Part shown: positions 46,397 to 57,423 of the stretch, in pieces
Layout: each line of letters begins with the position of its first letter
Position numbering within the stretch: the first letter of the stretch is position 1
From: Spirochaetota bacterium
GTDB lineage: Bacteria; Spirochaetota; UBA4802; UBA5550
Length of the DNA: 64,000 bases
NCBI GenBank assembly: GCA_963663865.1
Contig: OY760686.1
Location: 2,688,001 to 2,752,000, forward strand
Reading direction: 5' to 3'
Translations under genes and position numbers: made by a program
Notes under the pieces: generated by a model
What the model was told of the DNA's origin: nothing
Databases searched by the model: none
What the model saw: the letters and a program-made list of their open reading frames with translations, nothing else

Positions 46397-47410
46397 TCAA
46401 GACTTTTGGCTCGTCTGAAGATTAATGCCTAACATCCCTGCTGCCCTCCTGACAAGCTCGGGATTATCTTCAGAGGTGGTCTTATGCAGGGCCTCTTCGC
46501 GGCTCATCGCACCGGCCCTTACTATGCCGGCATTTTCCCAGGCGTAAGGATGAAAACCGAACTCCCTTCGGTGCAGATGATTAGCCAGGGCGTTCAGAGT
46601 GCAGTTAGTGGAATTTGGATCCGTGTCGTCAGGCTTCTCCCAGCCGGCCCCGGTGATCTCTCTGAGAATATCGTCTTCTGAATAATCCATGAATGCGAGA
46701 GGATGAACATTGAGAGGCCACCTTTCAGGAGGTGCGCTCATCTCTTCCTCAGAGAGAAAGAGCCCGGCTGTCCGTGGTCCGCACTTTGAGACCAGCGGAT
46801 CGCGTATGCTTCTGTTCGAAAAGCTCTGAATGCCGGGACCCGTCTTCATAATTGATGAAGAAATAGGGGCCTGACCCGGCGACCATCCATAGGCTGCAAG
46901 CGGGATGCCGTACCTGATAGCCGCTCCGGTAACCAGAGACTTCACCATACCAATGCAGGCAGTACATATTGAACTGGCTCTGTCAAGTGTCTTGGGACTG
47001 AATATACCGCCCCCGGCGGCAGCCCGGAAAATGTCCGAAATCAGGGGAAAGGGCGGCCTGATTATCCACGAAACAGCGCCGGCCCTGTCAGTCATCTTCT
47101 TTATGTTATCAAGTGACTTACTGGAGAGGAAGCCGTTGTCAAATGTCAGCGCCAGAACACTCAGCCCGAACCTTTCAGTCAGCTTCATGAGGGTGTAAGT
47201 AGAGTCCTTGCCTCCGCTGTAGGCTATAACAGCGTCAAAACGCTGTTTCCCCCTGACTTCATCGGCAATTCTTTCGAACCTTTCGAGATACTCTTCCTTT
47301 TTGGCTTTATCGGGCTGTTGAGTATTCCGGCAGTAGTTGCACACTCCCTCTTTGTCGAATTCTATTCCGGGGAAGGTTTCAGGAAGAACGCATTTTTTAC
47401 AGTAAATCAT
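46397..47410 (-). CDS. PP-loop ATP pyrophosphatase, N-acetyl-sugar amidotransferase-like
   Basis: CKKCVLP...GVCNYC; YSGGKDS; ICTAC; STNC. Confidence 0.78.
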   Translation of the reverse strand: MIYCKKCVLPETFPGIEFDKEGVCNYCRNTQQPDKAKKEEYLERFERIADEVRGKQRFDAVIAYSGGKDSTYTLMKLTERFGLSVLALTFDNGFLSSKSLDNIKKMTDRAGAVSWIIRPPFPLISDIFRAAAGGGIFSPKTLDRASSICTACIGMVKSLVTGAAIRYGIPLAAYGWSPGQAPISSSIMKTGPGIQSFSNRSIRDPLVSKCGPRTAGLFLSEEEMSAPPERWPLNVHPLAFMDYSEDDILREITGAGWEKPDDTDPNSTNCTLNALANHLHRREFGFHPYAWENAGIVRAGAMSREEALHKTTSEDNPELVRRAAGMLGINLQTSQKS

Positions 47411-47414
47411 GACA

Positions 47415-47666
47415 TTACCCCTCAACGCCCTTCCGCCTCAGAAAAGCGGCAATCCGGTCTATACTGTCAAGGTTCTCAGGGACAAGCTCGTCATCCTCAA
47501 CGGTTATGGAGAACGTCTCCTCAAGAAACATCACAAGCTCAAGAACCCCCGTCGAATCAATGACGCCGCTCTCAATAAGGGAATCTTCCGGAGCAAGACC
47601 GGTATCGGTTCTCCCCGCGATAAAGTTTTCTCTTATAAACTTAAGGATATTTTCGCTAACAGACAT
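47415..47666 (-). CDS. Acyl carrier protein
   Basis: SLIESGVIDSTGVLELV (DS phosphopantetheine site), PENLDSI. Confidence 0.9.
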   Translation of the reverse strand: MSVSENILKFIRENFIAGRTDTGLAPEDSLIESGVIDSTGVLELVMFLEETFSITVEDDELVPENLDSIDRIAAFLRRKGVEG

Positions 47667-47687
47667 GAATTCCTCCGCAAATTGTAT

Positions 47688-49643
47688 TCAGATTTTATCA
47701 GAACGCGCAGCAACCGCTGCGCCTCTTGCCGCACCCGAGGCATGCATATAATAAAGCATCTGTGTTGATGATATCGCGGCCAGGGCCATATCGTCTCTCT
47801 CGCTTATGAGAGCATCGGGGTTTTCAGCCTTTCGAAGCAGATTGATCGCCGCAGCCTCCTCGAAAACACCCGCCGACCTGATATTCTCCTCTGAGCATGA
47901 TTCCCGGGCGCTCCCATCAAGGCCCGCAACAACGCCCGCTATCGGAGCCCTGTAGGGCTGCTTGCTTCTTGAACAAACCTCATCGGGAAGCATGCCCTCG
48001 AACGCCCTTTTTAAGATGTATTTTTCATTCAGAACGTTCAGCTTATATCGCGGGGGGATGGATGCGGCGTACTCGATTACCCTGTGGTCAAGGAAGGGAA
48101 AGCGGCCCTCGACCGAATGCCCCATAAGCACCCGGTCTCCCTGCGAAGACAGAAGATAACCCGGCAGAAAGAGTTTGCTTTCTATGTACTGCGCCCTGCA
48201 TAGCGGATTCCACCTGCTGATGTCAGGGCTTATATATGAGTCAAGCCTTTCCCGCTGAGCAGTATCACTGAGCAGCTCCCTTATTTCAGGCCTTAGAAAG
48301 TGCTTTATACTCGATGTATTCTTCCATCTTATCGTGTGGGAATAATAGGGATTGTCAGTGTCCTCAAGCCCATATTTGAAGAAAGACTGCCAGAAGCGGA
48401 AAACCCTCGGATCCCGCGTGATGTACGGATAAAGCGTCGAGAGAAGCTTGGGCCTCCTGTGCGATGACGGCACCTTCGCCCAGAACCGCCTTATGCAGTC
48501 CTCCTTGAAGATATTGTAGCCCCCGAAAATCTCATCGGCGCCCTCGCCCGTAAGAACTACTTTGAGGCCGTTTTCTCTCACCAGACCGGAGAGTAGGTAT
48601 AGCGGCGCGGGCGCGCTCCTGGTCAAAGGCCTCTCACCAAACCACACCGCCTCTTCAAACGCCCTTGCGGTGTCCTGCAGTGAGGCGCGAACCGAGCTGT
48701 GCTCAGTTTTCAGCATACCGGCCATGAGCTCCTGATATGAAGATTCGTCATATTCTGAATCATCAAAGGTCACGGAAAAAGTCCTGAGCCCGTTCCCCTT
48801 GATTCGCCCGGCAATCATAGATATTATGGATGAATCCAGACCCCCGCTCAGATATGAGGCAACCGGAACATCAGCCCTCAGCCTGACAGACACAGCATCG
48901 TAGATCAGCTCATTCAGCCCCGCAATGTAATTCTCGACAGGCGCGTCATCGTAGTTACCATCATCCGGAAATGTGAAATCCCAGTAACGGCGAGAGGCGG
49001 TTCCCCTGGGACTGACGGTGATGTGTCCTCCGGGCTCTACCTCCTGAACCACTTTATAAGGTGTCATGGGGGGGATATTGACCCACATTGTCAGTATATC
49101 CTCAAGCCCCTGTTCCGAAAATTCAGGACTGACGCTGCCCTCCGCGAAGAGAGCCTTCATCTCGGAAGCAAACACAATACCTTCAGGGACCTGAGCAAAA
49201 AAAAGCGGGACAATACCGACCCTGTCCCTTACGAGATGCAGCTCCCTTCTCATCGAATCCCACAGGGCAATCGCGAACTGTCCGTTCAGCTTATCCATAA
49301 AATAAGGTCCGTACTCCTCAAAGAGATGCACAATGACCTCAGTGTCGGATTTTGTTTTAAATACATGCCCCTTTTGAACAAGAAAGTCCCTGAGCTCAAT
49401 GTAGTTGAATATCTCTCCGTTGAAGACGACACAGACGGTTCCGTCCTCATTGTAAATCGGCTGGGTGCCGCCGCTGATATCTATAATTGAGAGGCGGCAG
49501 CTCCCCAGAGCAAGAGGGCCGTTTACGTGAAAGCCCGTCTCATCGGGTCCTCTATGCCTGAGTGACGCTATCATCGTCTCAACGGCTCCGTTTTGAGCCG
49601 GAGCCATTTTTCTATAGTTGTATATTCCTGCAATTCCGCACAT
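47688..49643 (-). CDS. asnB: Asparagine synthase (glutamine-hydrolysing)-family amidotransferase
   Basis: MCGIAG, HRGPD, RLSIID, NGEIFN, SGGLDSS, GEGADE. Confidence 0.92.
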   Translation of the reverse strand: MCGIAGIYNYRKMAPAQNGAVETMIASLRHRGPDETGFHVNGPLALGSCRLSIIDISGGTQPIYNEDGTVCVVFNGEIFNYIELRDFLVQKGHVFKTKSDTEVIVHLFEEYGPYFMDKLNGQFAIALWDSMRRELHLVRDRVGIVPLFFAQVPEGIVFASEMKALFAEGSVSPEFSEQGLEDILTMWVNIPPMTPYKVVQEVEPGGHITVSPRGTASRRYWDFTFPDDGNYDDAPVENYIAGLNELIYDAVSVRLRADVPVASYLSGGLDSSIISMIAGRIKGNGLRTFSVTFDDSEYDESSYQELMAGMLKTEHSSVRASLQDTARAFEEAVWFGERPLTRSAPAPLYLLSGLVRENGLKVVLTGEGADEIFGGYNIFKEDCIRRFWAKVPSSHRRPKLLSTLYPYITRDPRVFRFWQSFFKYGLEDTDNPYYSHTIRWKNTSSIKHFLRPEIRELLSDTAQRERLDSYISPDISRWNPLCRAQYIESKLFLPGYLLSSQGDRVLMGHSVEGRFPFLDHRVIEYAASIPPRYKLNVLNEKYILKRAFEGMLPDEVCSRSKQPYRAPIAGVVAGLDGSARESCSEENIRSAGVFEEAAAINLLRKAENPDALISERDDMALAAISSTQMLYYMHASGAARGAAVAARSDKI

Positions 49644-49886
49644 AAGCATCCACTTTACGGGTATTAAACCGGCTTTTCTTTCGGCTCATCGTCCTGAGAC
49701 AGGGCATGATTACACGCGAATTTCTTTCACCTCCCGGCCGGCATGTCAAGCTATCTTTATAAAAGAGCACTTTTCAGGATAATTTCACTTTACTCTGAAA
49801 TGTTCTTGAAAAAAAATATGATGCAGGGCATAATGAGTGTCTTATTATTTGAATAACCTCATATCTTTTTACCACACGGAGTCTTT

Positions 49887-52188: not shown

Positions 52189-52309
52189 CAGTCAGTACGC
52201 AATTCCAGGAGCCACACAAGCCAATGCTCTTAAAAGTATTGACTTTGGGCAGGCCGCGTATTCCAGTAAGTCTGCGTTCTGTTTATAATCTTGCTCATCC
52301 GGATTGATC

Positions 52310-53563
52310 ATGCTCAGTACAAATAATCTCGACGCTGAAGACCTGCTACTTCTGCAGCTGTTCTCACAACGGGCTGATGAATCGGCTGTCAGCACAATTG
52401 TCCATTCAGAGCGCTTCAGCGTGAAGCGTTTCATGTCCCTTGCCCGAAGACACCTTCTGGACGGGGAAGCGTCTGACGCTCTTTTAAGGCTGAAAATAAG
52501 GGATGGACTGCCTTTGAGCATTGAGAAGGCGTGCCTCAGAGAGGCCGCCCTTGCATCCGCAGCGGCCGTAAAGCTCAGGTACGAAACCCTTTCCGTTATG
52601 AGATTACTCACCGACAATGAATTAGAGTGCGCTGTCATGAAGGGGACGTCGCTTGACTTCTCCGGATTCCGCCGCGGGCGCGACATCGACATACTCATCA
52701 AACCTGAAGTCCTTGAAAGGGCCTCAGAACTTCTTTCTTCCGGAGGATTCAGCTCCGCTGGAGGACGCAGCAACCTCATGGTTACGAAATCCGAGATTGA
52801 CGATTTGCCCGGGCAGATGAAGTGGAACTGTCAGTTTCAGTTTGAACACCGGGAAGCAGGATATCTCGTCGAGCTTCACACCGGCCTATTCGAAAAATCA
52901 AGAATATACTCTGAGAGCCTGAAAAGCCTTCACAGCCATGAGAGCATGTTCCTCAAAGGAAGGGTGTTCGACGATGAATTGGGGACATGGCGTATGAACA
53001 ACGCGGATATGCTCTTTCTGATGTGCATGCATTCAGCCGTCAAAAGGCCCCCCTCTTCAGATGGATTTCTGCTGAGAAACACTGTTGATATTACAAGATT
53101 GGTTAATAAGCCATTTGACATGGAACGCTTCCTTGAGACCGTCAGGAAAACCGGAACTGCCTGCTATATCTTCTTTTCGCTCAAGCTTACCTCCATGCTT
53201 TTTAAAGGAAGCATTGATGAAAAATTACTCAGCTCCTTGAGAGAGATGACCCCCAGGCGCTGTACCGCAGCTAATTTTTTTCATTTCCGCTCATTCAAAA
53301 ACCTCTCCGGCAATTCGACCCTGTTCTCGAACATCTACCGGACACTGATTCCCCTCACCTCCGCCGCAGCTGGACCGGGAATGCTGAGAGCTCTTTTCCC
53401 TCCTCTCCTATTCCCGCGGCCTGTTGCTGTTTGCCAGGCCTTCAGATTAAGACTGTCAGGCATAACGCTCGCGGCCGGGTATCTGCTGTGGCCGCTGATG
53501 CTTCTTTGCAAGGGCGGCAAGCTTGTCTACAAAAAGCTCAATCATACAGGCAGGAGAAGCTGA
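52310..53563 (+). CDS. Nucleotidyltransferase (NTP_transf_5 family)
   Basis: VMKGTSL...RRGRDIDILI...VELH. Confidence 0.82.
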   Translation: MLSTNNLDAEDLLLLQLFSQRADESAVSTIVHSERFSVKRFMSLARRHLLDGEASDALLRLKIRDGLPLSIEKACLREAALASAAAVKLRYETLSVMRLLTDNELECAVMKGTSLDFSGFRRGRDIDILIKPEVLERASELLSSGGFSSAGGRSNLMVTKSEIDDLPGQMKWNCQFQFEHREAGYLVELHTGLFEKSRIYSESLKSLHSHESMFLKGRVFDDELGTWRMNNADMLFLMCMHSAVKRPPSSDGFLLRNTVDITRLVNKPFDMERFLETVRKTGTACYIFFSLKLTSMLFKGSIDEKLLSSLREMTPRRCTAANFFHFRSFKNLSGNSTLFSNIYRTLIPLTSAAAGPGMLRALFPPLLFPRPVAVCQAFRLRLSGITLAAGYLLWPLMLLCKGGKLVYKKLNHTGRRS

Positions 53564-53566
53564 ACA

Positions 53567-54847
53567 GTGAACATAAATGAAAAAAGCGCTGAATGGCTTG
53601 AGATGGTCAGCGGAGGGCATCCGGTCGGCCCGGTGAAAATGGAGGTTCTTAGCGGGAGCATGCATCCGGCAATACGCGCTGGTGACACTGTAGTAATTGA
53701 CACCTCAGAGAACCGAAGACCGCGTATCGGTGAGATCGCTGTTTTTGCCGAAAAAAGACAACTGACCGCCCACAGGGTTCTATTCACCCTGCCCGGACGT
53801 ATATACCAAAAAGGTGATAGAAACAGCTTCGGAAGATTTTCTGCGACAAAAAATGTCGCGGGCGTCATCACTGGTATTATGAAGCCTGACGGAACCCTGC
53901 TTGAACTTGAAGATTCCGGCCGTATTGCGGCCTTCAGAGAAACGCTGAAACTGCTTTATTCCCTTGCGACAGAACCGGCGAGGAAGCTCAAAAGACGCCT
54001 CTTCCCGCGTCCTCTGGTCATTCAGTGCGGCGGCATCAGGTTAGGGCTCATTGTACCGGGAAAGCAGCTTCTTTCTTTTATGTCTGATTATTACAGAGGA
54101 TTTATCGTGCCGGAAAACCCAACATTCACACTCAAAATCAGTATCCGCAGAAGAAGCGGATCATTTGAAATCCCGGACTCTCTTTTCAACACCAAGACAG
54201 TAAACTCCAGCACCTTCAGCGCGGGCGGACTTGTTGATGGAAAGCTCTGCCGGGACGGCAAAGGCGCCGTTATTTCGGTCCCTGCCGGGCTTTTTGTGAA
54301 ACCGGTCGTAAGGGTATTCGAACAAATACTGTATCAGGCGTACTTCAACGCGGCGGCATTGTCTGATGAAGAGTCCTTCCTTATACACGCCTGCGGGGTC
54401 GAAGACGATGGAAAAGGCTATCTCTTCTGCGGGCCTTCCGGTTCAGGAAAATCCACAACAGCTGCCCTTTCAGTACAGACCGGGAAAAAGGTGCTGAACG
54501 ACGAAATATGCCTCATAAGGCGGTTAGACGGCCGCCTTATGCTGTCTTCAACACCGTTCAACGGCCTTTTCAGAGACAAGTATCTTGCTGAAGTCCCTCT
54601 AAAGGCCGTCTTTTTAATCGCTCATGGAGCAACAAACATGATCGAAGATATAGCTGAAAGCCACGCGGTAAAATCATTAGCTCGTGAAATTGTTCCGCCC
54701 ATTGGGCTCACGGAGAAAATCAGGCCGGCAACCTTTACCGGTATGCTTGATACGGCACAGAAGCTGACCAGAGAGATTCCGGTTAAGCGGCTGCGCTTCA
54801 GGCCGGACGCTTCGTTCTGGAAAACAATATCTGAACACTTTTCATAA
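53567..54847 (+). CDS. Fusion of S24/S26 peptidase-like domain and HPr-kinase-related P-loop kinase
   Basis: SGSMHPAIRAGDTV...AHRV..KGD; IHACGV...LFCGPSGSGKSTT...LNDE. Confidence 0.8.
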   Translation: MNINEKSAEWLEMVSGGHPVGPVKMEVLSGSMHPAIRAGDTVVIDTSENRRPRIGEIAVFAEKRQLTAHRVLFTLPGRIYQKGDRNSFGRFSATKNVAGVITGIMKPDGTLLELEDSGRIAAFRETLKLLYSLATEPARKLKRRLFPRPLVIQCGGIRLGLIVPGKQLLSFMSDYYRGFIVPENPTFTLKISIRRRSGSFEIPDSLFNTKTVNSSTFSAGGLVDGKLCRDGKGAVISVPAGLFVKPVVRVFEQILYQAYFNAAALSDEESFLIHACGVEDDGKGYLFCGPSGSGKSTTAALSVQTGKKVLNDEICLIRRLDGRLMLSSTPFNGLFRDKYLAEVPLKAVFLIAHGATNMIEDIAESHAVKSLAREIVPPIGLTEKIRPATFTGMLDTAQKLTREIPVKRLRFRPDASFWKTISEHFS

Positions 54848-54860
54848 GGAGACAACAGCA

Positions 54861-55136
54861 ATGGAAATCAGTAACAAAAAGAGACCTCATAGTGTGGAAG
54901 GAATTACCGTAAAAGAAATCGGCGGCGAAACAATAATAGTTACTGACGAAGGGAACTGGATGCACACCCTCGACACAACCGCATCATTTATCTGGAAGCT
55001 CATCGAAGAGGGACGTGAATCTACTGATATTGCCCTCCTGGTGGCTGATAGATACAGCATCCCCGAGGAAAGAGCGTCATCTGACGTCCACGAATTTCTG
55101 GAGGAACTGCGCAAGAAGGGCCTCATTCATTTCTGA
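54861..55136 (+). CDS. PqqD-family / RiPP recognition element (RRE)
   Basis: EIGGETII...HTLDTTASFIWKLI...DVHEFLEELRKKGLI. Confidence 0.9.
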   Translation: MEISNKKRPHSVEGITVKEIGGETIIVTDEGNWMHTLDTTASFIWKLIEEGRESTDIALLVADRYSIPEERASSDVHEFLEELRKKGLIHF

Positions 55137-55169
55137 ACAGGCCCTGTATCTCAGTCTCTTAACGGCAGG

Positions 55170-55337
55170 CTACCTTCTTCCGAAGAAAGAAAAGAGCCAG
55201 CCCCAGAAACCGCCCATTCCGCCCCAGCCATGTCCATGATGACCGCCGTTTCCGCTGCCGCCCTGACCTCCGTAGCACCCGAAAACACCTATCGAAACCC
55301 TCTCTGAAAGAATTGACGGCTTACTATACTCAAGCAT
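55170..55337 (-). CDS. Putative RiPP-like precursor peptide (55 aa)
   Basis: AGGGAG RBS; MLEYSKPSILSERVSIGVFG-CYGGQGGSGNGGHHGHGWGGMGGFWGWLFSFFGRR; YxxP leader motif; adjacent to RRE gene. Confidence 0.72.
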   Translation of the reverse strand: MLEYSKPSILSERVSIGVFGCYGGQGGSGNGGHHGHGWGGMGGFWGWLFSFFGRR

Positions 55338-55390
55338 ATCGCTCTCCCTGTGAAATAATATGGCATAACCCTTCACAACCTGCCAGATTC

Positions 55391-55419
55391 ATCTTAAGTA
55401 CAATTTCGGGGGAAATCAA
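55391..55419 (-). promoter_or_regulatory. Putative sigma70 promoter of the peptide gene
   Basis: TTGATT-N17-TAAGAT. Confidence 0.55.
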
Positions 55420-55454
55420 AATTTTTTTGTGCTTTTTTAAAAAAAAGCGATAGA

Positions 55455-55608
55455 ATCCCCGCCGGTGGCGGGGATTTATTGTATCGATCTCGTTTCGTTC
55501 AACATTAACTCATGGATTCCCCGCCCCCAAGGTCTGGGTATGTTGCTTATAATCATATCCCACAATACTGAAAGATCTCCCCGCCTCAGGCGGGGAGATC
55601 TTTCAGTA
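55455..55608. repeat. Pair of related palindromes (TCCCCGCC-N3-GGCGGGGA core), REP/MITE-like
   Basis: 10-bp stem at 55455-55477 and 20-bp perfect stem at 55566-55608. Confidence 0.75.
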
Positions 55609-55705
55609 CAAAGGAATTACTCTTTTTTCATCTCAGCTTCAATATTTGCTGGCTTTTATTATTTTAATCTTAAAATATATCATAAAACACTATAGAACGG
55701 CTGCA

Positions 55706-56626
55706 ATGAATAATACCCTTAAAGTAGATAACATATCAAAGTCATTCCGAAGGATATCGCTTTTCGCTTCAGCAAGGATACCGGTTCACGCCCTGAAAGA
55801 AGTGAGCTTCCAATGCGGGGGAGGCTCAACCCTGTGTGTTCTCGGGCCGAACGGCGCCGGCAAGACAACCCTGATGAAGATTCTCGCCGGGCTCATATTC
55901 CCCGACTCTGGAAAAGTCCTGTTCAGCGGCAAACACGGTTCAGTCCGTTCCGGACTGGTGAGTCCCAACGACAGGTCTTTCTACTGGCGCCTCACCGGCA
56001 GGCAGAACCTCGACTTTTTCGCCTCGCTGCACGGTTACCGGGGCAGGGCAAGGAATAGTCAGGTAAGCGCGCTTCTTGAGCGCTGCGGCCTCGCAGATGA
56101 AGCTGACCGTCCCTTCAGGCTCTACTCTGCCGGCATGAAGCAGAAGCTCATGATCGCCCGTGCGCTTCTCGGCAACCCGCAGGCGCTTCTTCTTGATGAA
56201 CCAACGTCTCACCTTGACCCTGCCGCGAAGAAGAGCATTCATTCGCTCATTAAGTCCTTCACGGACAGGATTATCATTCTTTCAACTCACGACCTCACTG
56301 AGGCAGGCGCCCTGTCAGACGAAATAATTCTGCTGAACGGAGGAAGCGTTATCGCCAGGGGCAATGTAGATTCACTGCGCCTGTCCGAAGCAAAGGTTTA
56401 CACCATCAGGTTCGAGTCTGATCCGGTTCAGGGGTGGGATAATGGCCTTCTCTCAAAACCGGCCCGCAGCGCCGGCGGCGAACACCGCTTCATAATCCAT
56501 AAGGACGAATCCGCCTCCTGCATACTATCCAGAGCGCTGAATGCCGGAGGCCGGATAATTTCCTGCGGATTTGAAACCGAATCTCTTGAGGACATCTTCA
56601 CCAGAATCACTGAGGGTAAATCATGA
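55706..56626 (+). CDS. ABC-2 type exporter ATP-binding subunit
   Basis: GPNGAGKTT, YSAGMKQK, LLLDEP. Confidence 0.93.
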   Translation: MNNTLKVDNISKSFRRISLFASARIPVHALKEVSFQCGGGSTLCVLGPNGAGKTTLMKILAGLIFPDSGKVLFSGKHGSVRSGLVSPNDRSFYWRLTGRQNLDFFASLHGYRGRARNSQVSALLERCGLADEADRPFRLYSAGMKQKLMIARALLGNPQALLLDEPTSHLDPAAKKSIHSLIKSFTDRIIILSTHDLTEAGALSDEIILLNGGSVIARGNVDSLRLSEAKVYTIRFESDPVQGWDNGLLSKPARSAGGEHRFIIHKDESASCILSRALNAGGRIISCGFETESLEDIFTRITEGKS

Positions 56627-57423
56627 TATTTCTTGCTTTCGTTAAAAGGGACATTCTCACAGCGCTAAGTTATCCCTTAAACATTGCCCTGCAGCTGATC
56701 AAGGTAAGCATTACCCTCTTTCTGATTTACTTCATCAGCCGGACATTCAGCGGGAGTGTATCTCCGCACCTGACAAAGTACAGCGGTGACTATTTCGCCT
56801 ACGTGCTGATGGGAATATCTGTATCAAGCTTTGTCTTCGCCGGGCTGGACGCCTTTGCCTCATCTGTAAGAACAGCCCAGGTTGAGGGCACGCTCGAAGC
56901 GGTTTTGACAACGCCAGTATCAATATTCACGGTTCTGCTGGGCAACTCTCTCTGGACTTTCATCCTGGCTTTTGGAAGCTCCATTGCTCTTCTCGGCGCC
57001 GGAATGCTTTTTTTGGGCATTACGCTTTCCCTTACGTCAGCCCTGCTCTGTCTGGCAGTGCTGCTGCTCACCTTTCTTTCGTTTCTTTCGGTTGGAATGC
57101 TTTCAGCTTCCTTTATCATGGTATTCAAGCAGGGAAACCCGATCGGAATGATTTTCGGCACATCAAGCTATTTTCTGGGAAGCGTCCTCTTCCCCGCCGA
57201 GGTCCTTCCCGGTTTTCTGCAGCAGGCGGCAAAGCTGCTGCCAATGACATACGCCGTAAGGTCTCTGAGGGATATCGTTCTTGCTTCAGCGGCTCCGGGC
57301 GATGTTTTTCCGGTTATGCTCCAGCTGGCCCTTTTCATAATTATCCTTGCTCCCGCGGGGCTTCTTTCGTTCAGCTTTGCCGTGAAAAGGGCCAGGATAA
57401 ATGGAAGCCTTGTGCAATATTAA
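56623..57423 (+). CDS. ABC-2 type exporter permease
   Basis: Six TM segments; EGTLEAVLTTP, LLPMTYAV. Confidence 0.9.
   Translation: MIFLAFVKRDILTALSYPLNIALQLIKVSITLFLIYFISRTFSGSVSPHLTKYSGDYFAYVLMGISVSSFVFAGLDAFASSVRTAQVEGTLEAVLTTPVSIFTVLLGNSLWTFILAFGSSIALLGAGMLFLGITLSLTSALLCLAVLLLTFLSFLSVGMLSASFIMVFKQGNPIGMIFGTSSYFLGSVLFPAEVLPGFLQQAAKLLPMTYAVRSLRDIVLASAAPGDVFPVMLQLALFIIILAPAGLLSFSFAVKRARINGSLVQY

Follow-up and report, generated by a model that had tools for sequence, protein, structure and literature searches.

What can be made by a cassette for a ribosomally made peptide with modifications added after translation (RiPP) that encodes no recognisable cyclase or radical SAM enzyme is the question raised by a 64,000-nt stretch of a Spirochaetota bacterium genome (assembly GCA_963663865.1, contig OY760686.1, positions 2,688,001 to 2,752,000, forward strand; hereafter the window). 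The cassette has six genes, which encode an NTP_transf_5 nucleotidyltransferase, a fusion of an S26 peptidase and an HprK-like kinase, a stand-alone RiPP recognition element (RRE), a 55-aa peptide and a two-gene ABC exporter. All these open reading frames (ORFs) are intact, and the gene content and positions reported in a first-pass annotation of the window were borne out by Pfam and NCBIfam scans with the catalytic motifs in place. That annotation had proposed an undescribed peptide class. It is not wholly undescribed, because a 2026 study reported this five-gene set, likewise from capsule loci, under the name linear polyphosphorylated peptides (LPP), encoded by lppA-K-B-S-D-N in Paenibacillus alginolyticus (Popov et al, 2026, PMC13381572, available text). 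The cassette is a divergent variant of an LPP-like pathway, and falls outside LPP by its precursor motif, acceptor and exporter. What is new here is a GVFG-x-Tyr precursor family with hundreds of variants in uncultured bacteria, and a pathway predicted to phosphorylate tyrosine. We somewhat favour the view that the cassette is an intact, radical-SAM-free branch of the LPP-like pathway in which Tyr22 of the peptide becomes phosphorylated.

The peptide gene (55170–55337, reverse strand) is present as a single copy in the genome. Its product contains a leader with Y4-x-x-P7, the segment G17-V-F-G20, a Cys at position 21, Tyr22 (codon 55272–55274, reverse strand; 18 residues past the leader Tyr), a Gly/His linker and a Trp/Phe-rich tail ending RR. 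The leader, the single Cys, the lack of Asp/Glu after GVFG and the C-terminal sequence are as the first-pass annotation had described them. A search with the single sequence returned only the peptide itself; the family came to light only by way of neighbouring genes. The window peptide has no match among Pfam and NCBIfam models, and three relatives have none in NCBIfam. A search of the ESM Atlas gave nothing usable, and the peptide profile hit the PDB once, by chance (E 0.39). The same cassette is found in a genome of the same taxonomic family, where S26 and kinase are separate genes, the RRE is followed by a radical SAM/SPASM gene and the antisense peptide shares the leader; the kinase of that genome groups with those of Spirochaetota loci. 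The kinase alignment yielded 35 genome loci and 64 metagenome loci for the precursor search; together with locus L021 and the window these held 48 precursors, or 45 once the near-duplicates L052, L060 and L091 were dropped. Counting the window, there are thus 45 distinct loci in which this peptide family adjoins these genes, which argues that the peptide ORF is not a chance one, and it lies antisense to the kinase in 40 of them. A profile of 34 precursors matched 342 representatives at 50% identity (E ≤ 0.001). Collecting and aligning short ORFs beside homologous genes, as had been suggested with the first-pass annotation, therefore showed a conserved peptide.

Y4, P7, G17, G20 and Y22 were invariant in all 34 aligned precursors. 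The leader Tyr then served as the origin for counting positions in the best 150 database peptides, of which 149 could be anchored. Phe or Tyr was found at +15 in 148 and Gly at +16 in 149, and Tyr stood at +18 in 145 and Ser in none, a count which is biased upward as the 150-peptide profile included the Tyr column, and this tells against the acceptor proposed below. A recount was therefore made with a leader-only profile omitting that column, and Tyr was present at +18 in 48 of 53 distinct matches (two further were not parsed), with some bias left because its seeds were picked with a Tyr-containing pattern. Among the five exceptions, the Tyr is shifted by one or two positions towards the C-terminus in three and by one position towards the N-terminus in one, and the precursor of locus L072 has none. 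Position +17 varies among the 149 (Cys in 36, Asp in 34, Ser in 28, Asn in 22 and Lys in 12), while the neighbouring Tyr is kept. The single Cys is thus not a conserved feature, and Cys21 was rejected as a functional residue and is considered incidental. Ser/Thr is present within five residues after GVFG in 85 of the 149 and absent in 64; nine of these peptides have no Ser/Thr anywhere after GVFG and still keep Tyr. Whether or not the locus has a radical SAM gene, Tyr22 is conserved, which argues that it serves the shared enzymes.

The loci had been selected on the kinase, and 36 were well flanked, with at least 4 kb before and at least 3 kb after it. The RRE was seen in all 36 of these and S26 in 30; 26 showed the nucleotidyltransferase, 25 a precursor, 20 the ABC-2 pair (the ABC counts rest on an L021 ABC-ATPase query) and 16 a radical SAM gene. 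The claim of an RRE-dependent RiPP-like cassette stands. The RRE (54861–55136, forward strand) has the PqqD fold (PF05402, 65.7 bits against a cut-off of 23.4) and is the sole PqqD-type gene in the genome. Its profile matches the lasso and LPP RRE structures 5v1u, 9x90 and 9x8z; its residues D75, F79 and L83, each at least 90% conserved in 53 aligned sequences, align with D70, F74 and M78 of LppB in the pocket for the leader Tyr and Pro, where D70 and F74 hold these two residues (PMC13381572, available text).

The fusion gene (53567–54847, forward strand) begins with an S26 domain of the SipW/archaeal type (53567–53986; TIGR02228, E 8e-9) having the triad Ser31, His69 and Asp84, and this triad is kept among near-full-length relatives (Ser 71/71, His 70/71, Asp 71/71). 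A Phe matching the LppS pocket for F-3 is kept in 65 of 71 S26 domains. The fusion is uncommon, as S26 and kinase are split in most relatives; it was found in 3 of 74 S26 ORFs, two of them from the same locus, and in P0002 and P0003, and locus L023 is among those that carry it. The kinase domain (53981–54847) has an HprK/PEPCK fold with His274, a Walker A motif at 289–297 and N311-D312-E313, and the His, Walker A and NDE motifs are invariant in 33 of 33 aligned sequences. The predicted structure of this domain (pLDDT 95) finds its matches in the folds of PEP carboxykinase and HPr kinase, and a PDB sequence search with the kinase profile gave P-loop matches only. The LppN/PsmN-like nucleotidyltransferase (52304–53563, forward strand, with an alternative ATG at 52310; PF14907, 81 bits against a cut-off of 31) is the sole PF14907 gene in the genome. 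Both aspartates of its metal-binding D127-x-D129 are invariant in 20 of 20 aligned sequences, and its model (pLDDT 89) matches pol-beta-type nucleotidyltransferase folds best, though weakly (best E 4e-4). The exporter consists of a DrrA-like ABC-2 ATPase (55706–56626, forward strand; TIGR01188, 178 bits; PF00005), which probably does not start at the TTG found upstream, at 55646, and an ABC-2 permease (56623–57423, forward strand; PF01061, E 1e-16). Judged from its genes, the cassette is real and functional-looking.

According to the available text of PMC13381572, LPP clusters, often located in capsule loci, combine a SpI peptidase, a separately encoded RRE, a kinase resembling HprK, an NTP transferase and an exporter of the MsbA-like type, and work without any cross-linking enzyme. 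The kinase was shown by experiment to polyphosphorylate Ser3, SpI cuts after F-E-T in an RRE-dependent manner, and LppS has the triad S29/H68/D93. The cassette of the window resembles this system in its SipW-type S26 domain with a Ser/His/Asp triad (the likeness to LppS rests on the TIGR02228 match and the triad, compared with the published description), its discrete RRE, HprK-like kinase, NTP_transf_5 protein and exporter, and the lack of a cyclase. The two also share a YxxPx[VI] leader, a conserved N-terminal region with a variable C-terminus, a hydroxyl residue 18 past the leader Tyr (Y-16 to S3 in LPP and Y4 to Y22 here), frequent occurrence in capsule loci and a patchy distribution. On the other hand, the HQ, FET and Ser3 of the LPP consensus YxxPxVLxHQxIxFETxxS are absent and GVFG-x-Y is found instead, so that the acceptor position holds Tyr and not Ser. 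The exporter is a two-gene ABC-2/DrrAB type unlike the MsbA-like exporter of LPP, and MsbA-like genes were seen only beside three of seven remote precursors of other lineages. Unlike LPP, the precursor is usually antisense, an optional radical SAM/SPASM gene is tied to a CC tail, S26 is fused to the kinase in the window, and the family occurs not in Bacillota but in genomes of Spirochaetota, Krumholzibacteriota, Fibrobacterota and Latescibacterota type. The main text of PMC13381572, so far as available, does not mention radical SAM or Spirochaetota, and six of its supplementary files do not contain the strings "Spirochaet", "GVFG", "Krumholz", "Leptospir" or "Fibrobacter". A literature search, with most subscription papers outside its scope, found no description of the GVFG family, and the available part of PMC10288494 holds nothing on it.

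From the gene set, the catalytic residues, the conservation of leader and Tyr and the lack of other maturases, all of which were observed, we infer the whole chemistry of the pathway as follows. The RRE would very probably hold the precursor by its YxxP leader (YxxPxI). The HprK-fold kinase would, on a modest balance of probability, phosphorylate Tyr22, the predicted acceptor because it is the sole hydroxyl residue conserved near the site. The S26 domain would probably cut off the leader within or just after GVFG. Signal peptidases follow a small-residue rule at the cut site, and this rule with the invariant Gly favours G20|C21, the leading candidate although itself short of probable; the core from this cut would be 35 aa long, with an unmodified monoisotopic mass of 3669.59 Da. 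The cut C21|Y22, which is favoured by the placement of Phe19 in the pocket that holds F-3 of LPP (PMC13381572, available text), comes next as a fair way from probable, and F19|G20 is an unlikely third. The nucleotidyltransferase might then add a nucleoside monophosphate (NMP) or a sugar to the Tyr22 phosphate, a step that we propose tentatively. The ABC-2 pair would likely export a linear peptide with an aromatic, cationic, membrane-seeking tail, and the product could equally well stay at the cell surface or membrane as leave it. The phosphorylation or nucleotidylation suggested in the first-pass annotation thus remains the likely chemistry, which we still infer.

The lack of radical SAM noted in the first-pass annotation is true of the window and represents one state of an optional module, as shown by its presence in some of the well-flanked relatives. 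A radical SAM/SPASM gene is present in 26 of the 45 loci with a precursor. The precursor tail is CC or CxC (mostly NPxFxxCC) in 22 of these and in none of the 19 loci without the gene, the window being among the 19. The remaining four precursors of radical SAM loci end with a single Cys, and most of the 19 other tails are rich in Trp/Phe and Arg/Lys/His. The association of radical SAM with the CC tail has a Fisher p of 4e-9, which is overstated since kin are not independent. On a kinase tree (LG+G4, 45 rows, omitting L052, L060, L091 and loci without a precursor in cis), the radical SAM state changes eight times, and branches with good support require at least six of these changes; the grouping of all radical-SAM-less loci in one clade was rejected (p-AU 1e-78). 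Gain and loss are not separable because the tree is unrooted, and on short metagenome contigs "no radical SAM" was scored by gene adjacency only. Radical SAM is a separate, optional module of the family, and where it is present, the enzyme, which resembles ScmE/AhbD-type SPASM enzymes, likely cross-links the C-terminal NPxFxxCC tail. L021 (11414–14386) has an intact radical SAM gene, a precursor with one terminal Cys and an S26 domain whose catalytic His is replaced by Tyr, the sole such case in 71, and is a possible transitional locus. Small ORFs in L071 (18773–19039) and L088 (2971–3174) match the radical SAM profile, have no CxxxCxxC and adjoin the precursor gene; they are possibly stand-alone SPASM pieces.

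A partner enzyme was then looked for in the rest of the genome, which is one contig of 3.16 Mb and 98% complete, and no cassette-type maturase was found. The cassette radical SAM profile gave a best match of 59 bits in this genome against 423–516 for members, and at most 130 bits in nine of nine other radical-SAM-less genomes against 513 for a positive control, the completeness of these nine being not stated. The best match is a 343-aa radical SAM protein with 12 Cys (G000:C1:2875717-2876748) and no RRE near it. Two SPASM radical SAM genes about 2 Mb away also have no RRE nearby, and from their motif we take them to be sulfatase-maturase types. Loss of a radical SAM gene by assembly error was rejected, as single contigs span the RRE-to-peptide junction without such a gene in two of four sequencing runs, one of which may be the assembly's source sample, and a tblastn search found no remnant (best E in the window, 5.6). 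The B2 protease family PF13471 had no match in the genome. The nearby AsnB, the one full-length AsnB in the genome, keeps its glutaminase domain, as had been annotated; it scores 489 against an asparagine-synthase cut-off of 267 and 230 against a lasso-cyclase cut-off of 525. As a cyclase it was rejected on the latter score, and among the set of loci examined for neighbours an AsnB homologue occurs near the cassette in L039 and L107 only.

Several observations weigh against the phosphorylation of Tyr22 proposed above. LppK left S3Y, and also S3T, unphosphorylated, and deletion of LppN gave no detectable product change in a heterologous host (PMC13381572, available text). Tyr phosphorylation here therefore needs a changed specificity, and no such change toward Tyr is visible in the sequence or model of the kinase; a literature search turned up no Tyr-specific kinase of the HprK/PEPCK fold. 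The +18 register is ungapped while leader lengths can shift, and it places the cut after Phe19, an unusual P1 residue. The independent test of radical SAM against tail type has only six pairs, of which a mean of 5.1 go the same way and none the opposite way (median p 0.0625). Furthermore, the precursor of L072 (4938–5078) has Cys at +18 and no Tyr near the site, in a cassette that looks intact and has all the enzymes including radical SAM; this precursor has a single-Cys tail.

These points leave room for the same pathway with another role for Tyr22, which we regard as unlikely but the most serious alternative. GlnD and GlnE attach an NMP directly to a Tyr of their targets. The nucleotidyltransferase could likewise put an NMP on the Tyr hydroxyl, in keeping with its pol-beta-type fold and intact DxD, or Tyr22 could be a recognition residue of the peptidase, with the kinase acting on some other group, for example a Ser/Thr close by, the N-terminus freed by cleavage or a co-substrate that is a small molecule. 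The rejection of Tyr by LppK and the 85 of 149 precursors with a Ser/Thr close to GVFG are in its favour. It fits poorly with the 64 precursors that lack such a residue, and with the nine that have no Ser/Thr after GVFG at all. The nucleotidyltransferase is also missing from 10 of the 36 fetched flanks while kinase and RRE are constant (the loci being selected on the kinase), the acceptor position coincides with Ser3 of LPP, and the dispensability of LPP core residues 1–5 for cleavage speaks against a pure recognition role (PMC13381572, available text). Phosphorylation of Tyr22 by the kinase is thus the role that we prefer for this residue.

The surroundings of the cassette suggest another role for the product. 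It lies within a large Wza/Wzc/Wzy locus, right after rmlA-C-D on the same strand, and is followed by genes for an outer-membrane protein, Wza and Wzc and by a convergent Wzy gene; the glycan locus extends about 20 kb past the window end, where genes were named by eye from their N-termini. The processed peptide might be an anchor in the membrane, or a carrier, with the Wzy-dependent polysaccharide or one repeat unit of it linked to the phosphate. Of the 30 loci examined, 10 have glycan-related neighbours (L030, L033, L035, L039, L040, L046, L057, L094, L107 and L109), a count which is a lower bound as 162 of 275 called ORFs were scanned. Two NAD-epimerase matches were left uncounted, and there is no background rate for this count. 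Three of the seven remote precursors adjoin a priming sugar transferase, an O-antigen ligase or AsnB, and the capsule setting of LPP clusters and the hydrophobic tails also agree with an anchor. However, no glycan genes were seen near the other 20 loci among the ORFs scanned, and several Spirochaetota-type loci, one of them from the same family, lie among hydrogenase-maturation genes. The precursor is also rare, occurring in 5 of 301 genomes of the phylum, its hydrophobic stretch is short and interrupted and is not a transmembrane helix, and the conserved core of the cassette has no glycosyltransferase. Because the glycan link is recurrent but not obligatory in cis, we hold the anchor role, which the first-pass annotation had raised, to be a minority reading and quite improbable.

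A decaying relic, in which the radical SAM gene was lost, the tail drifted and no product is made, seems very unlikely. Such a history would suit the patchy distribution (2 of 41 related genomes have a full-length match to the kinase), the end branch of the window kinase, which at 0.98 is the longest of any radical-SAM-less row, and the intermediate look of L021. Against it, none of the six ORFs is disrupted and their catalytic residues are present. Precursor and kinase are likewise intact in the 19 loci without radical SAM, which have at least several separate origins, and 18 of these keep the RRE. The non-CC tails moreover converge on aromatic and basic residues, as 67 of 150 peptides have at least three Trp/Phe in the last 20 residues and no CC, and LPP works without a cross-linking enzyme. 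It is highly improbable that the product is finished by a canonical maturase (radical SAM, lasso cyclase or B2) encoded at a distance from the cassette, in spite of the precursors found far from their enzymes in all five genomes tested from other lineages and the other radical SAM genes of this genome, since the scores above are far below those of cassette members and there is no B2, one PqqD and one ordinary AsnB in a nearly complete single contig.

Compared with other known systems, the cassette shares an HprK-family kinase, an NTP_transf_5 protein and a discrete RRE with the PsmK/PsmN system of pseudomycoidin and with paeninodin lasso clusters. PsmN, of the same family as the window nucleotidyltransferase, is needed for hexose addition onto the phosphate placed by the HprK-family kinase (PMC6993621, available text). 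Unlike phosphorylated or phosphoglycosylated lassos, the window has no macrolactam cyclase, no B2 and no ring acceptor (Asp/Glu at core positions 7–9), and the predicted acceptor is near the core N-terminus, while it is the C-terminal Ser in phosphorylated lassos. The earlier conclusion that the peptide is not a lasso is thus upheld. No RRE-linked radical SAM/SPASM enzyme, the feature of radical SAM RiPPs such as sactipeptides and ranthipeptides, was found in the cluster or genome. Spliceotides are counted among these RiPPs, and their splicease excises tyramine at a YG motif. Such a splicease was rejected for the window, as it has no radical SAM and Gly follows the Tyr in only 108 of 148 precursors. 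As in the SynChlorMet/HPr-rel-A systems (TIGR04248-51, TIGR04352-53, PF27840), the kinase homologues belong to the Pfam ScmC family (PF27840) and have a PqqD partner. The matches to the models of these systems, those of the kinase to HprK_rel_A and ScmC included, are weak and below the cut-offs (ScmC 28 vs 125, ScmD 20.6 vs 100, HprK_rel_A 33.4 vs 200, PqqD_rel_X 16.8 vs 35), and unlike them the window has no radical SAM, of which SynChlorMet has a pair, and a precursor is identified. Phospho-Tyr is not new in RiPPs because the dolichospermamides, phosphorylated cyanobactins, carry it; there it is made late by a PKc-like domain inside the macrocyclase, with no HprK fold and no RRE or S26 (PMC12639078, available text).

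Some cassettes have no precursor in their flanks, and in five of five such genomes tested the precursor was found elsewhere, and therefore action in trans occurs in the family. In four of these genomes the precursor has a third tail type ending LHMD/LRME or similar, which accounts for 16 of 150 database peptides. These precursors (L130:8410-8571, L131:8546-8749, L132:8635-8850 and L133:9241-9471) have the same leader and Tyr and lie far from the cassette. Their neighbours include MsbA-like ABC genes (L130, L132 and L133), an O-antigen ligase (L131) and AsnB (L132), and in L130 and L131 a class-III aminotransferase and porphobilinogen deaminase. Two of the genomes, G054 and G052, have a second, His/Trp-rich precursor besides the LHMD type (L134:8009-8200 and L135:8131-8322), and one enzyme set may therefore serve two tails. 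A broader and rather speculative reading is that of a widespread modular RiPP platform of uncultured Gram-negatives, in which a single leader and a single tyrosine kinase of the HprK/PEPCK fold would provide a phospho-Tyr handle, the nucleotidyltransferase would convert it to a phosphodiester with a nucleotide or glycan and tails are swapped, and in which the window peptide would tether a surface glycan to the membrane. This would have at least three tail types (cross-linked CC, aromatic/cationic and LHMD/LRME), with radical SAM repeatedly gained or lost along with its CC substrate.

LPPs were described only in 2026 and from Bacillota, and the available text leaves open what the end product is, what the nucleotidyltransferase does and what purpose the peptides serve (PMC13381572). 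The GVFG family offers a natural contrast set, with Tyr for Ser, with and without radical SAM, and inside and outside capsule loci. The window is its minimal version, with three enzyme genes, one RRE and one peptide in a closed genome having no other candidate maturase. This makes it testable whether an HprK-fold kinase acts as a tyrosine kinase and what NTP_transf_5 adds, and the CC-tail branch points to an uncharacterised radical SAM cross-link whose substrate motif is mapped.

The first-pass annotation had also given the peptide gene its own ribosome-binding site and promoter. The former is present as AGGGAG, 6 nt before the ATG (55344–55349, reverse strand), and purine-rich sites precede most relatives' peptide starts. 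The promoter was not supported, as a sigma-70 scan of the region gave three sites, fewer than the 4.7 that chance would give, and none directly upstream of the peptide, where a lone TATTAT hexamer (55360–55355) is visible. One contig of run X1 has an extra T at 55421, in a poly-T tract upstream of the peptide gene, which could be strain variation or a slippage site. Plasmid searches gave short, distant matches only. Divergent from rmlA-C-D is an operon (46397–49649, reverse strand) encoding an AsnB-type amidotransferase, an acyl carrier protein and a WbuX-like N-acetyl-sugar amidotransferase, which probably serves polysaccharide amidation or acylation; AsnB and the acyl carrier protein are near the cassette again in L107. 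Two GC-rich palindromes, presumably REP-like, are located at about 55456 and 55578, within 55454–55600 between the peptide and ABC genes. Their pattern occurs 13 times in the genome, eight of these as a tandem run with a spacing of about 60 bp (G000:C1:1423335-1423759).

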